This document shows positions 12,701 through 52,900 of a stretch of DNA of 64,000 nucleotides, one piece after another. The stretch comes from Eledone cirrhosa (lineage: Eukaryota), in NCBI GenBank assembly GCA_964016885.1, contig OZ024750.1, forward strand, positions 14,570,001 to 14,634,000. The letters are read 5' to 3'. The notes under the pieces are model-generated. The model was not told where the DNA came from and made no database searches. It was given only the letters and a program-made list of their open reading frames with translations. The position numbers were made by a program, and so were the translations under genes. How positions within the stretch are numbered: position 1 is the stretch's first letter; each line of letters opens with the position of its first letter.

Positions 12701-15700
12701 CTTTCATCTTTACGGGGTCGATAAAATAAAGTACCAGTAATGCACTGGGTAATTGCTGGCCTTGTGCCAAAAGTAGAAACAATTATTATTATGTTATCAC
12801 ATGACCCTCTCTACCCTAACAGAGAAGAGAATAAATAGATATTGATACACACACATACACCCACACACACAAATTCTTGTTCATTTTGCCGATTGGATCA
12901 TTATTATTATAGTTGACATACCATGATAACACAAACCATGATAACACAAACCATGATATCACATACCATGATAACACATACCTTGATATAACATACCATG
13001 ATAACACATACCTTGATATCACATACCATGATAACACAGCATAACACAAACCATGATATCCCATACCATGATAACACAAACCATGATAACACAAACCATG
13101 ATATCACATACCATGATAACACATACCTTGATATCACATACCATGATAACACATAGCATAACACAAATCATGATATCCCATACCATGATAACACATACCT
13201 TGATATCACATACCATGATAACACATACCTTGATATCACATACCATGATAACACATAGCATAACACAAACCATGATATCCCATACCATGATAACACATAC
13301 CTTGATATCACATACCGTGATAACACATACCTTGATATCACATACCATGATGACACATACCTTGATATCACATACCATGATAACACATGATATAACACTT
13401 CATATTTAACAGGTTAACGGATCCTCCTATAAAGGAGGGACAATTGAAAACTCTGTAAAACAGTTGTTTACCTGTAAAAGTAAGACAAAATTCTGTTTGT
13501 CTTTTGGTTTCCCACCTCTGTATGCCACAGCTGGATATTCCCAGTCAATGTCTAAACCGTCTAAGTTGAATCGATTTAAGAACTGCAAAGCGCTCTGTAG
13601 AAACTCTTGTCTTGACCATGCAGTTGAAGCCATTGAACTAAATTTTCTGGCATTCGTACCCCAGCCTCCCACAGAGATCAGTACTTTTAGTCGTGGGTTT
13701 TGTCTTTTTAGACGGACTACCTCATTAATCCTTCAAATATAAAAATATAAGAATTAAAAATTGTGTTGGAGCTCTGAAATAGCGATGTATATATGAAAGT
13801 ACGTATTGTATATTTAAAAATATAAGGTATGTTTATTTTAAAACATTTTGAAGGCATTTCGCAAATAATTTAAGGTAACGACTATAGTCCTAGCTTCTTT
13901 GTTTTTGCTGAAGCTAAGTATGTGATTATAGTCTCTACTTTAAATTCATAGCGAACGGCCTTCAAAATGTTTTAAAATAAACATACAGTATATTATGAAA
14001 TATACAATGCGTACGTTCATAAGAATTAAAAATTCGAATGTTTGGAATATTAATTAAAAATATGAATTACCATGAGAGGTGATATCTATAATGTTTATTT
14101 TTATGTCAATAAGTAAACAATCTTAATTATAAAACGCAATCGAAAGTCTAACTTCTACTACGATACGACTTAATTGGTAGAGTTAGAGCTTTAACAAATT
14201 ATATGTTGTATCATATCCTTATTTTTATAATCGGGAAACTTTCGTATGATTGGACTTCAACTCAAAGTTTCTGGGAATAAAGTACAGACGCAGCTCAATT
14301 ACGGTGTGGATTCTAACGATACATACATATATATATATATATATATATATATATATATATATATATATATATATATATATATATATATATATATATATAT
14401 ATATATATATATATATATATATGAAAAAATATCGTTTGTTTACAAAAAAAAATATTAATATTAAAAAATTGGAAGGAGGTAAGTAGAGAAGTGAACCTAA
14501 ACATCGAGTGCTCGCCCGAGTCAACCCACAGTAACTCCGCGTTACACTCCCTGGATATATATATATATATCGGGCGAGCACTCGATGTTTAGGTTCACTT
14601 CTGTGTCGAGGTGTAGAGCTAGACAGAGTGTAATATAATAATACAAGGACGAATGGTTACTCATATATATATATATATATATATATATATATATATATAT
14701 ATATATATATATATATATATTGTTATACTTTGGGAGGGTCATGTTGCCAATAAGAAACACACGCACCAGTTGCTTTCACTTCAATTTAATTTAATATATA
14801 TTTATAAATTTACAAATTTATAAATTTCTGGTTGGTTGGTTGGTTCCACAACCAGATAGTTGTTTATATATATATAGTCATAGTTCTTTCGTCACACACT
14901 CTGTGACCTCTTCAGATAAAGAATCTTGCTAAACAAATTCAGAAACGAAATATCGTAAGACTATATATATATAAAGAACTATGACTATATATATATAAAC
15001 AACTATCTGGTTGTGGAACCAACCAACCAACCAGAAATTTATAAATTTGTAAATTTATAAATATATATTAAATTAAATTGAAGTGAAAGCAACTGGTGCG
15101 TGTGTTTCTTATTGGCAACATGACCCTCCCAAAGTATAACAATATCGGTTTCAACACACGATTTCAGATAAAGAATCTTGCTAAACAAATTCAGAAACGA
15201 AATATATATATATATATATATATATATATATATATATATATATAATATAAGATCAAAAGATGGTTAAAGGAGTTCCATGTATTTTATTATGCGCATTTCA
15301 AAAACAAACATCATCATGCAATAATATTTGTGTTTTCATCAGATAAAACAGGAGAACATGATATGAAGGCTAAAAAACACTTGTGGATAGTGCAGTTTTA
15401 AATCAACATATCAACATGTTGATTTAAAACTGCACTATCCACAAGTGTTTTTTAGCCTTCATATCATGTTCTCCTGTTTTATCTGATGAAAACACAAATA
15501 TTATTGCATGATGATGTTTGTTTTTGAAATGCGCATAATAAAATACATGGAACTCCTTTAACCATCTTTTGATCTTATATTATGCATACTCCAGTCCTAC
15601 AAACTGTAGAGTGCTTCTTATCCGATATCTGCATTGCTTTATTGTACTACAATAAAACTCACCTCCTACATATATATATTTATATATATATATATATATA

Positions 15701-49900: not shown

Positions 49901-52900
49901 TCGAAGACGATGAGCTCACCAGTCTGTTTGGTAGGACTTTCCGCCCGAGATCTATGGACAACTTCCAGAGGTCCCTGGCCTGGCAGTGCTACCGAGGAGC
50001 TCTACCGGTTCGTGACAAGATCTACAGGCACGGACGCCCCGGCAGGGATCCTTCCAAGAGGACGTGTCCAAGATGTGCGCAGGACATTGAAACAGTTCTG
50101 CACGCAATTGTACACTGCCCGGGCGTAAGCGACATGTGGAACTATGCAGAACAACTGCTGTCGCGTATGGGACAAATCCAGTTGACTGCCGAGTCCATAG
50201 TAAGGATCAAACCGCCAGCCTCTTTAAAAAACGAAAGAGAGGCGGTTTTCCTCTGTACGGTGGCTATGGTGAAAGAAGTTATATGTTGGACGAGGTTGAG
50301 AGGACTGAGGACAGATGCCTTTCTCTCCGGACAACAATTGATTCCCTTCTTTAAGTATCACTTTAGAAGGAGAATCAGGGTGGAAAGAGAGGCACTGCAC
50401 CCCAGTAAATTTACTGAAAGGTGGGTGAATGAAGCGAAAATGGCCCGAGTGATTGGACCTTCTCTGTTTATAAGCCTGTAGGTTGAGGAAGAGAGCAAAA
50501 GGAAGAAAGGAGCACTTTCACAACACACTCCTGGAGTTGAGGGTTGTTCTATCGACGGGGTATTAAACAACCCATTTGTGGCGCCTGCCCCCTATTGGGG
50601 ATTTCGATTGTTGTAATTGTTTGTTTTTATATTTTTTACACGACTGCATGTAAAATCCCCGGCATGTCTTTGTATTGTCCCCTTTTCTTCTGTGCCCTTG
50701 TGGCTAATAAAGAAATCTATCTATCTATCTATCTATATATCTATCTATCTATCTATCTATCTATCTATCTATATATTTATACTGTATATCATCATCATCA
50801 TCATCATCAACGTTTAACGTCCGTGTTCCACGCTTGCATGGGTTTGGACGGGGGTTTTCCCACTTGAAGCAAGAGTGATTGTCTTGCTCGCATAGGACTG
50901 TCGGCGGGTTTTCTACAGCTGGATGCCCTTCCTAACACCAACCACATTTACAGTGTGGGTCTGGGAGGTTTTTACCGTGTTGCCTACACGGCCACATTAC
51001 AGCGTGGACTGTGTGTTTTTTGTCGTGACACCTACACGATCTCATTTGTTTCGGCCTGGATGTTGTGGCACCAACATAACTTTACATTGAAAGGGGCGGT
51101 GTGGATGGGGTGGGGGTGGTGGGACGGGGGTGTGTTTTGTTAGAGATGCCTACTGACTGTAATAGGTTTTACTTTGTATTTAGGTAAGGCGGGTCTTCTC
51201 TATTACTGAGTACCGCCAAAGGTCTCGGTCCAGTGACATTGTCTTGGAGAGGTGTAAGCGTGTGAGGTCGGAATTTATCATGTCGTCCCAGGTTTTTCTG
51301 GGTCTGCCTACTCCGTGGCTACCGTCTATCTTTATTGCCCTGCACTTTGTTATACAGCTGTCGTCTTTCATGCGCATCACGTGACCATACCAATGTAGCC
51401 TTCTCTCGAGTAAACAACATCTGATCCCTCTTATTTCTAATTTTTTCCTTAGTTCGTTTATGCTTAGCCGTTCACGTATTACACATCCAGCGGAGCATGC
51501 AAGCTTCGTTCCTCTCTAGTCTGCGTATATCCTCTGCACACAATGCCCAGGTCTCACTGCCATGCAGCATTGCTGTTCGTATGCAGGCATCATACAGCCT
51601 GCCTTTCATTTTTAGAGAGAACCCTTTAGCGGCTAATAGTGGTATAAGCTCTCTGAACTTTTTCCATCCAGTTCTGACTCTAGCTACTGTACTTTCAGAG
51701 CACCCTCCCCCACTGCTGATTTTGTCACCCAGGTAACGGAAGCTGTCCACTATTTCTATAGAACCCTCTGCGCAATTGAAAGAGCTAGTATTTTGTGGGC
51801 ACTTGCTGCTACTTATTGCCCCAGAGCACCGGCCACATGTAAAATCTATGTTCTTAGTTAGCTTACCTGTGATCCCACTACATCTTTTATGCACCCATAC
51901 TTTGCATTTGGGACATAAAATGGAGTTTCTACCTATGCCTTTCCTACACACTGAGCATGGCCATTTCCCGGAAATATATATTTATATAATAAACAACATA
52001 AGGCAATTATTCCATTTACCAGTGGTTTCTTAAAAGCAAAAGATTTTGCTTTCAATCCTCAGAATGAAAAAAACTGGTCTCAGTGACCAGTTTTTTTCAT
52101 TCTGAGGATTGAAAGCAAAATCTTTTGCTTTTAAGAAACCACTGGTAAATGGAATAATTGCCTTATGTTGTTTATTACATAACTATTAAGCTCTGTTACC
52201 TACATAGAGCACTCTTTTTTCCTGGACTTTTCCGACGGAATTACTTCATTTACACACACACATATATATATATATATATAAATTTTGAGCATATGTTGGT
52301 TATATACCAACACCTCAGTATGCAGATTGGAGCACTCGACGAAGTGCGCAGGTTAGTTTGGTTACTCCGGAGTAATGTAAAATAAAAAAGTCAAATGTTT
52401 AAAATTTGGCTTTGTTTATTACTGCTATATATATTTCGGTGACAGCCATCTTTGGCTGTGACCTCTTCAGGCAGTCCGAATTAATGTGGTAGAGACGAGT
52501 ATACATGTTGTTGAGGTATACAAGGGCTTGTTTCAGGGGGGTACTAGGGGACAATACCCCCTCCCCCTTACACACACACACTTTTACAAACGTTTTTATT
52601 TTATTTTTTGTTTATTTGATATAATAAATTCTTTTTAAGCTTATTTTTTTTTTATATCTGAACTTCATTTGAATATATAAAATTTAAGTAGTGTAAAATT
52701 TTACTTATGTGATAAGGTCCAGAGAAGGCACCATAAGAAATGTATGCTCCTTTAAGCATCAACAATTGTTGGTTTGTCCCCCTCACATTTTTAAGGCAAA
52801 CAAGGCCTCTGTATATATGTATATATATATATGACTGATAAGTTTCAGAAAGCCAGTATAATTTCGACTGGTCAGCAGTAGCATTCTGGACATACCCTAC

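Follow-up and report, generated by a model that had tools for sequence, protein, structure and literature searches.

A bulged hairpin beside the ends of Penelope-like element copies, probably of the Hydra clade, in an Eledone cirrhosa contig and in public sequences

Several features of Penelope-like element (PLE) insertions are already known, namely an inverted pseudo-long terminal repeat (pLTR), a tail, a hammerhead ribozyme and two start sites for the reverse transcriptase (RT) (PMC8557442, PMC11167929; here and below, papers are cited for the accessible part of their text). PLEs of the Hydra clade, which encode a C-terminal endonuclease, insert into (TA)n, carry a hammerhead near the 3' end and leave inverted, 5'-truncated copies with an optional tail (Craig et al. 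2021, PMC8557442); the clade is recognized by an RWK motif, DKT, a CxCX5C linker, CxxC and CxH around E and N, and no CCHH (PMC8557442). Poseidon PAc of Anolis carolinensis has an AT-rich target and an upstream hammerhead, and its tail is delimited by two internal sites at which the RT starts (Frangieh et al. 2024, PMC11167929). A stem-loop lies at its RT start region, and the anole Poseidon protein cuts and extends both DNA strands and is predicted to dimerize (PMC11167929). Penelope insertions of Adineta vaga show an inverted pLTR, a tail and junction palindromes, and their inverted junction contains an overlap (Arkhipova et al. 2013, PMC3846280). Here we describe six inserts that resemble these insertions in a 64,000-nucleotide (nt) stretch of Eledone cirrhosa DNA (contig OZ024750.1, positions 14,570,001 to 14,634,000; the window), together with a bulged hairpin that stands a few nucleotides from their ends and occurs twice in full-length elements.

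The window is AT-rich animal DNA in which GH18 chitinase exons are interspersed with microsatellites and repeats. An earlier note on it had reported six inserts in which a palindrome arm stops just before a hairpin; all six were found where they had been placed, within a few bases, and all have the order (TA)n, inverted arm, direct arm, hairpin, tail, and (TA)n or (CA)n on the plus strand. E15 (15242 to 15669) lies between (TA)n runs, with an inverted arm at 15245 to 15409, a direct arm at 15416 to 15583 (100% identical over 165 nt) and a hammerhead core at 15483 to 15529. The arms of E24 (23821 to 24283), at 23829 to 24009 and 24014 to 24194, are 100% identical over 181 nt, and its hammerhead core lies at 24096 to 24137. 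E39 (39391 to 39778) has arms that are 93% alike, and its tail runs into (CA)n, while E40 (40597 to 40782), which belongs to a very high-copy family with two discrete termini, has short unequal arms that are about 85% alike. The arms of E48 (48240 to 48413) are 49 nt long and identical, and those of E52 (51978 to 52251; hammerhead core at 52102 to 52138) are 99% alike. Four of the six inserts (E15, E24, E48 and E52) thus combine equal-length arms of 99 to 100% identity with loops of 4 to 6 nt.

Sensitive BLAST comparison revealed no element-level similarity among the six, in line with the note, which had called them unrelated. Every direct arm carries a whole or partial type-I hammerhead upstream of the hairpin and on the same strand: both core halves in E15 (15483), E24 (24096) and E52 (52102), and, by eye, a variant core (CCGAGGA) in E39 (39571) and just the 3' half in E40 (40650) and E48 (48303), both of which are short. 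Rfam returned no hammerhead match in the window up to an E value of 5. The inserts are 5' truncated, with an inverted copy on the 5' side and a 3' tail. Since a (TA)n target, an inverted copy, a tail and a hammerhead make up the described anatomy of PLE insertions (PMC8557442, PMC3846280), the earlier assignment to Penelope was right, and it can be narrowed to the Hydra clade. The unduplicated tail also exists, but its length had been put at ~45 to 60 nt, and the unduplicated part takes in the hairpin and measures about 62 to 82 nt. The inserts merge into (TA)n 39 to 60 nt after the hairpin.

The hairpin reads RCTC, inner stem, loop, inner stem, a 2-nt bulge, GAGY and R, i.e., it has a 4-bp outer stem, a 2-nt 3' bulge (TT, TA or TC) and a covarying inner stem. 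The (T)ACTC...GAGT hairpin of the earlier note is therefore present in a corrected, bulged form, and its copy at 24202 reads ACTC...AAGT. We refer to these copies as hairpin 1. In E15 it occupies 15588 to 15614 (inner stem CAGT/ACTG, bulge TA), and the tail-less arm ends 4 nt before it; in E24 it occupies 24202 to 24223 (CAA/TTG, bulge TT, one outer mismatch; arm end 5 nt before), and in E39, 39709 to 39735 (TGCT/AGCA, bulge TA; arm end 3 nt before). The hairpin of E40 lies at 40702 to 40727 (TACT/AGTA, bulge TT; tail-less end of the family at 40696), that of E48 at 48352 to 48372 (TGC/GTA with a G-U pair, bulge TT; arm end 5 nt before), and that of E52 at 52190 to 52212, with a GCTC/GAGC outer stem, a TGT/ACA inner stem and a TA bulge.

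An exact descriptor of this form matched the window nine times, seven times within 90 nt of a microsatellite and six times at 20 to 70 nt, whereas 12 local shuffles gave 0 to 2 matches each and a single match at 20 to 70 nt in total. In 31 hairpins, 76 of 87 inner-stem cells were Watson-Crick paired when the 2-nt bulge was assumed, compared with 11 to 21 of 76 to 91 in four other registers; the covariation that the note had asked for is therefore strong. Metagenome pattern matches were left out of this count except for those at two public loci (L042 and the L032 mini unit; L numbers denote public loci outside the window), as were E10 and L184b (same family as E40 and L177), the second L177 hairpin and L188 (L184 family), E35, E48b and 34608 to 34656. 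When nine window families were anchored on the outer stem and bulge only, 25 of 27 inner cells paired, with four pair types (2 to 8 of 25 to 27 in other registers), and the 16 hairpins from loci selected by protein alone gave 39 of 46. The outer stem also showed swaps (A-T and G-C in 7 and 24, T-A and A-T in 29 and 2), including GCAC/GTGC in two hairpins from protein-selected loci. In a fitted alignment of 38 distinct matches, which leans towards its own model, six of seven pairs changed on both sides, a level reached by 0 of 500 shuffles. Taken together, these results leave us nearly certain that the motif is real. Two candidate identities were rejected: the hairpin is not hammerhead stem III, as it lies 45 to 105 nt after the GAAA core (an ACTC/GAGT stem III does occur in several Hydra hammerheads), and by eye it has no core matching a selenocysteine insertion sequence.

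The same features bear on whether the signal acts as DNA, either as paired GCTC/GAGC half-sites or as a single-stranded DNA hairpin read by the GIY-YIG endonuclease at resolution. The outer stem is conserved in sequence, and the tail of the Drosophila virilis element is required for endonuclease recognition of plasmid DNA (cited in PMC11167929). However, the half-sites can be anywhere between 8 and 42 nt apart, the inner stem shows covariation and G-U pairs occur without loss of the motif, the motif keeps to the hammerhead strand, and the target is (TA)n rather than the element. We therefore regard a DNA signal as improbable.

The boundaries of the copies are not random with respect to the hairpin. 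The arm end, which had been placed 3 to 13 nt before it, does keep a fixed short offset, but one of 2 to 6 nt once (TA)n microhomology is counted. Tail-less ends lie 4, 5, 3, 5 and 5 nt before the hairpin in E15, E24, E39, E40 and E48, respectively, and 5 nt before it in E10, a further window insert; comparison of paired copies gave 2 to 3 nt for E25 with its relative at 4714 and about 5 nt for E40 with its relative at 4006. Outside the window, the values were 6 nt (L179), 5 nt (L177), 6 nt (L184/L189) and 6 nt (L087). All 13 tail-less ends thus fall at 2 to 6 nt, with E52 (52190), which is ambiguous, counted at the 3 nt given by a repeat finder rather than the up to 10 nt of strict identity, and with 35167 omitted as unclear. 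Under a crude null over TA-like sites (13 to 40 per region, 10 regions), the joint chance is about 1e-10, although the families are not fully independent.

Larger-scale sampling drew on public contigs and on sequencing reads of one family, that of E40. Over 40600 to 40782, this family was represented by 13,180 and 13,916 contigs and by 21,546 and 23,034 reads. One listed tail-less end, end 1, was observed directly behind 40696, 5 nt before the hairpin, and runs into (AT)n (1483 and 1705 reads; 214 and 222 contigs). End 2 was found behind 40763 to 40766, where (AT)n follows some 11 bases later (6631 and 7555 reads), about 47 nt after the hairpin. Among the listed ends there was also a minor loose end behind 40678 (57 contigs in X1). 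In the hairpin, the listed variants fell at four positions of the loop, which also had two indels, and at one position of the bulge; a single C>T change gives a wobble pair. Solo tail-less copies exist as well (4006 to 4108, L177 and L184). A solo hairpin plus tail was seen between two (TA)n runs near 3001 of L045.

Since 3' subterminal hairpins define Helitrons (PMC8969392), we considered whether the inserts are not PLEs at all but Helitron/Helentron-like elements, elements resembling miniature inverted-repeat transposable elements (MITEs), or chance hairpins. A metagenome scan that fixed only the outer stem, the bulge and a (TA)6 run gave at least 118 matches; of 105 that were parsed, 27 (one on a duplicate contig) showed at least 3 bp of inner stem. 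With the same pattern, chance inner stems appeared in 2 of 41 matches from viruses and in 2 of 15 from prokaryotes. Among the 90 listed metagenome matches with enough upstream sequence, however, an inner stem accompanied 9 of 10 strict hammerheads and only 9 of 80 matches without one (Fisher P 6e-7). The hammerheads in the window are on the strand of the hairpin, and the same hairpin flanks Hydra RT-endonuclease open reading frames (ORFs). The ends merge into (TA)n in place of the 5' TC and CTRR 3' ends, or the asymmetric terminal inverted repeats with a terminal hairpin, of Helitrons and Helentrons, and the linked ORFs encode RT-endonuclease and not Rep/helicase. For the ORF-linked loci the non-PLE reading is refuted, and overall it is extremely unlikely.

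The link to the Hydra clade comes from these ORFs. L042 contains two whole ORFs, of 705 and 702 amino acids, with the motifs RW(K/R), DKT, CxCX5C, CxxC and CxH, and a 35-protein alignment (A1) shows the same set, by eye in both cases; by these motifs, which can be applied to ORF-bearing loci only, such loci belong to the clade. Pfam named no domains in the 702- to 705-amino-acid ORFs; in homologs, RVT_1 scored below and GIY-YIG above the cut-off. Relatives at E values up to 1e-50 accounted for 3372 of 7999 scored proteins. When 12 loci were fetched by Hydra-clade protein alone (from 35 relatives), 10 had the hairpin; of the other two, one is a weak fragment (L186) and one breaks off 25 nt past its hammerhead (L176). 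Among the six new Hydra-clade consensi in the supplement of PMC8557442, the hairpin was clear by eye in three (Hydra-2_Amil, Hydra-1_Ajap twice, and Hydra-2_Ajap), present as a variant at both ends of Hydra-1_Crog, and uncertain in Hydra-1_Obim from octopus; in relatives of Hydra-1_Amil (L084 and L116) it lies just beyond the consensus end. The 3' end of L184 matches Hydra-2_Amil and that of L084 matches Hydra-1_Amil by eye. Insertion into (TA)n, seen in window inserts and reads, is common to Neptune and Naiad and so is not diagnostic. Naiad and Chlamys, which have an N-terminal endonuclease and no canonical hammerhead, do not fit the presence of hammerheads or of linked ORFs with a C-terminal endonuclease, and six 8-mer probes found no terminal motif in the Naiad/Chlamys consensi. 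Based on these data, the window inserts are very probably members of the Hydra clade. The 3' untranslated region (UTR) of Naiad_Mmer in the same supplement has a single bulged hairpin that resembles the motif, some 430 nt away from the end of the consensus, by chance or by shared origin. The contigs of L175 to L190, in which Hydra-type PLEs occur with (TA)n, are filed as bacterial metagenome-assembled genomes, most likely through host-animal contamination.

The full-length elements also revealed that the earlier note saw half of the system: a second hairpin, visible only in such elements, marks the end of the tail. Two hairpins precede the Hydra-type ATG in all seven leaders (L042 twice, L175, L181, L182, L183 and L185), with a linker of 38 to 44 nt between them and the ATG 13 to 33 nt after hairpin 2. 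Hairpin starts are 57 to 68 nt apart. In all four elements with both a tandem junction and a terminal copy, the tailed end lies just before hairpin 2 (3, 2, 4 and 4 nt), which means that the stretch of leader between end 1 and end 2 makes up the tail. Given that tailed ends stop before hairpin 2 and tail-less ends before hairpin 1, both ends bear the same relation to a hairpin: each has a short UA-rich tract 2 to 6 nt 5' of a bulged RCUC...YN-GAGY hairpin. An element thus reads ORF, 3' UTR and hammerhead, then end 1 followed by hairpin 1, a stretch of about 40 nt, end 2 followed by hairpin 2, and the AUG of the next unit.

A unit of about 250 nt that lacks an ORF (L032, 1745 to 2003, minus strand) has both hairpins and a hammerhead between (TA)n runs and is likely a nonautonomous, retrozyme-like Hydra derivative. 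It resembles the short ORF-less units, and the inserts the pLTRs with type-I hammerheads, in reports on PLE hammerheads and metazoan retrozymes not based on long terminal repeats (PMC4209133, PMC7229834, bioRxiv 10.64898/2026.07.22.740005), which in their accessible text deal with the ribozyme only and define no mobilization signal. Near position 2385 of L183 there is a full unit whose 5' end is at hairpin 1, directly after (TA)n.

Hairpin 2 is only 13 to 33 nt from the ATG, and in some cases the 5' end falls at hairpin 1 (L183, the L032 mini unit and the Hydra-1_Ajap consensus). Both observations would suit a role in expression, with the hairpins acting as an internal promoter or start site, or as a translational operator bound by an element protein, and the ends coinciding with them via RNA ends or UA tracts. 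Such a role leaves the shared 2- to 6-nt offset of 3' termini at both hairpins unexplained, and the ORF-less unit nonetheless keeps both. We therefore consider it unlikely that expression accounts for the hairpins, although a dual role in expression and priming is possible.

These observations bear out the note's proposal of a conserved cis signal at the boundary, inasmuch as boundaries are nonrandom and the hairpin covaries; its role as a priming point is what we infer. From the sequence comparison, it is fairly probable that each hairpin positions one start of reverse transcription. In the scheme that we propose, the inserts are 5'-truncated insertions of Hydra-clade PLEs. The RT-endonuclease would bind each hairpin and so keep a cut (TA)n end of the DNA at the UA tract immediately 5' of it. 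Both target strands would be cut and one cDNA primed from each, with the strand primed at end 1 giving the inverted, tail-less arm and the strand primed at end 2 giving the direct arm, together with hairpin 1 and the tail; the 3' ends of the two cDNAs would then join. If the end-2 cDNA stopped early, an inversion with little duplication would result, and if it reached the same template break, a near-perfect palindrome.

The lengths of the arms distinguish this scheme from fold-back, in which a single cDNA primed at the tail end would truncate, snap back and copy itself, with hairpin 1 as the stop for second-strand synthesis. Self-priming has been proposed for inverted PLE junctions (PMC3846280), and the equal, nearly identical arms and short loops of E15, E24, E48 and E52 agree with it; these arms also fit two cDNAs made off one broken template, or later gene conversion. 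However, in E10, E4c, L030, L051 and L087 it is the tail-less arm that extends further upstream than the tailed one, which fits independent priming and which fold-back of the tailed cDNA cannot produce. Fold-back can account for a stop before hairpin 1 but not for tailed ends before hairpin 2, which that cDNA would not contain, and solo tail-less copies exist. As a general explanation it is thus quite unlikely, although it may make some of the perfect palindromes. The arms of E40 differ at 40660 to 40661, positions that are polymorphic in the reads, which hints at two templates.

Several points weigh against our reading. No ORF is attached to any of the six inserts, and tblastn with two Hydra-type ORFs found no match in the window at E values up to 1; since the window contains neither a Hydra ORF nor hairpin 2, both the clade and the second hairpin are inferred for these inserts. 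The end-2 rule is based on four elements. Single hairpins fold weakly, with z below -2 in only three of nine, so the evidence for the hairpin is comparative; the E24 copy (24202) barely folds alone (-0.4 kcal/mol), and for 39709 and 52190 the minimum-energy fold of the single sequence is the unbulged register. Hairpin regions were picked by eye, kinship among families is uncorrected, and some hairpins are degenerate (L182, and 1-bp inner stems in L042 minus and L185). The comparison fits RNA and single-stranded DNA alike as the folded form. Finally, the E40-family reads and contigs stem from four runs, three samples and two studies of one coded organism, possibly not the species of the window, and 26 variant rows and 665 loose-end rows fall outside the E40 listing.

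Further PLE ends are present in the window, with hairpin copies on the minus strand at 10877 to 10902, 14578 to 14629, 24902 to 24937 and 52332 to 52373. The first belongs to E10 (10830 to 11032, minus strand), of the same family as E40, in which the tail-less arm extends about 25 nt further upstream than the tailed arm. E14a (14570 to 14662, minus strand) has the long-loop hairpin at 14578 to 14629 and only 7 nt of tail; its plus-strand sibling at 14487 to 14556 retains the 3' hairpin strand and a 43-nt tail. E25 (24860 to 25030, minus strand) consists of a variant hammerhead, the hairpin at 24902 to 24937 and a tail, and its tail-less relative at 4714 to 4804 terminates 2 to 3 nt before the hairpin position. 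E52b (52270 to 52470, minus strand) has a hammerhead core at 52470 to 52434, a long-loop hairpin at 52332 to 52373 with a 6-bp inner stem, and a tail. In the palindromic insert E35 (35140 to 35432, minus strand), the arms are about 87% alike and the hairpin is reduced to its 5' half, at 35167. E4c (4826 to 5042, plus strand), a relative of E39, has an inverted tail of about 50 nt on the left and a tail-less arm of about 150 nt on the right, with no duplication, and E4a (4006 to 4108, plus strand) is a tail-less E40-family copy with both hammerhead core halves.

The motif is not universal, as a palindromic, hammerhead-bearing insert at 14717 to 15202 has a 57-nt tail but no RCTC hairpin. This family also occurs at 38229 to 38479, and 40 nt of its tail recur at the palindrome center. 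A family with a CCHH endonuclease, the type of Neptune, Nematis and Poseidon, likewise lacks the hairpin (47380 to 48110 and 26480 to 26596), though its ends there may be tail-less. At 46700 to 48110, a CCHH-type PLE, Nematis-like by its linker, with a hammerhead at 47880 and an end in (CA)n, combines an inverted endonuclease fragment (46700 to 47380) with a direct copy that is only 63% alike in DNA; the arms come from different families. A relative stops at the same base, 26596. The only named protein reached from an endonuclease fragment in the window was from Octopus bimaculoides. An E25-family piece at 25206 to 25290 (plus strand) stops inside hammerhead stem III, about 2 to 3 nt before the expected cleavage site, and is followed by (TA)n. 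Hammerhead cores at 39571, 25025 and 25257, from two families, read CCGA-GA instead of CTGA-GA. A weak model match at 34608 to 34656 (16.3 bits) may be a decayed hairpin, and only the 3' half of the motif is clear in a hammerhead-bearing end at 48445 to 48676 (E48b).

Two divergently oriented GH18 chitinase genes have exons at 9021 to 16170 (minus strand) and about 43860 to 59322 (plus strand), the latter with a CBM14 domain; E15 sits in an intron-like stretch of the first, and a (CAA)-rich repeat (9304 to 10117) lies between exons. LINE fragments (RVT_1, zf-RVT and PHD), a 71-bp satellite of 42 copies and a 15-bp array were found at 32462 to 33396, 49663 to 50478, 51183 to 51981, 26758 to 29745 and 30587 to 31509, and one SINE-like repeat has many copies across the whole window. 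A further repeat family adjoins (TA)n without a hairpin (11966 to 12206 and 34290 to 34413), and an inverted repeat of 230 bp at 13792 to 14021, with arms 79% alike, is probably a MITE. Pfam searches of 147 of the 264 window frames gave no PLE domain. In the Rfam scan of the window, none of the 106 listed matches reached the gathering score, and the best were microRNA models on palindromes; a microRNA reading of the palindromes was rejected.

RNA structure fixes the RT start in hepadnaviruses (epsilon) and in telomerase (template-flanking elements), and in L1 twin priming two target ends prime on one RNA. We draw on these systems for likeness of working only and claim no homology; in the Hydra-type elements, there are two copies of the signal, one 3' of each start. 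Among PLEs, a stem-loop at an RT start site has a precedent in PAc of the Poseidon clade (PMC11167929), but the RCTC...GAGY motif does not. The PAc starts lie inside one AC-rich stem-loop within the ORF, whereas both Hydra-type signals are in the leader before the AUG; by eye, the 96 nt printed in Fig. S1 contain no RCUC...GAGY motif, and the accessible text reports neither covariation nor a second hairpin (PMC11167929). In A. vaga, the insertions are explained by self-priming on an antisense template, and no terminal RNA motif is described in the accessible text (PMC3846280). For the Hydra clade itself, PMC8557442 gives a tail of 30 to 40 bp and ascribes it to endonuclease resolution, in contrast to the 57 to 68 nt in full elements and about 62 to 82 nt in the window found here; its main text, as far as accessible, does not contain the word "hairpin" or describe such a motif. 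As the earlier note had suspected, we found no description of the motif or of its doubling in the open-access literature or Rfam, a search that did not extend to Repbase reports, subscription papers or figures (Fig. S1 and S2 of PMC11167929 could bear on the claim). The motif, a new cis-acting RNA signal in elements of an established class, has thus probably not been described before.

PLEs are the closest relatives of telomerase RT, and how they choose their start sites and where their tails and inverted repeats come from is a named open question (PMC8557442, PMC11167929). A short covarying motif that occurs twice, at a fixed offset from both termini, makes for a simple mutagenesis test. It is also a DNA-level marker by which ORF-less stumps and retrozyme-like units, which are very abundant (13 to 14 thousand contigs per run for the E40 family), can be classified. 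We give about an even chance to the more specific reading in which the duplicated bulged RNA hairpin, conserved across phyla, would be a protein landing pad for one RT-endonuclease subunit each, with a single RNA primed twice by the two strands of the cut (TA)n target. If true, PLE start sites would for the first time have a defined cis code, which would account for the tail and the inverted pLTR as well as for products that range from plain inversions to perfect palindromes. A cassette of about 110 nt, portable and suited to two-strand RNA-templated insertion, would then also be defined.

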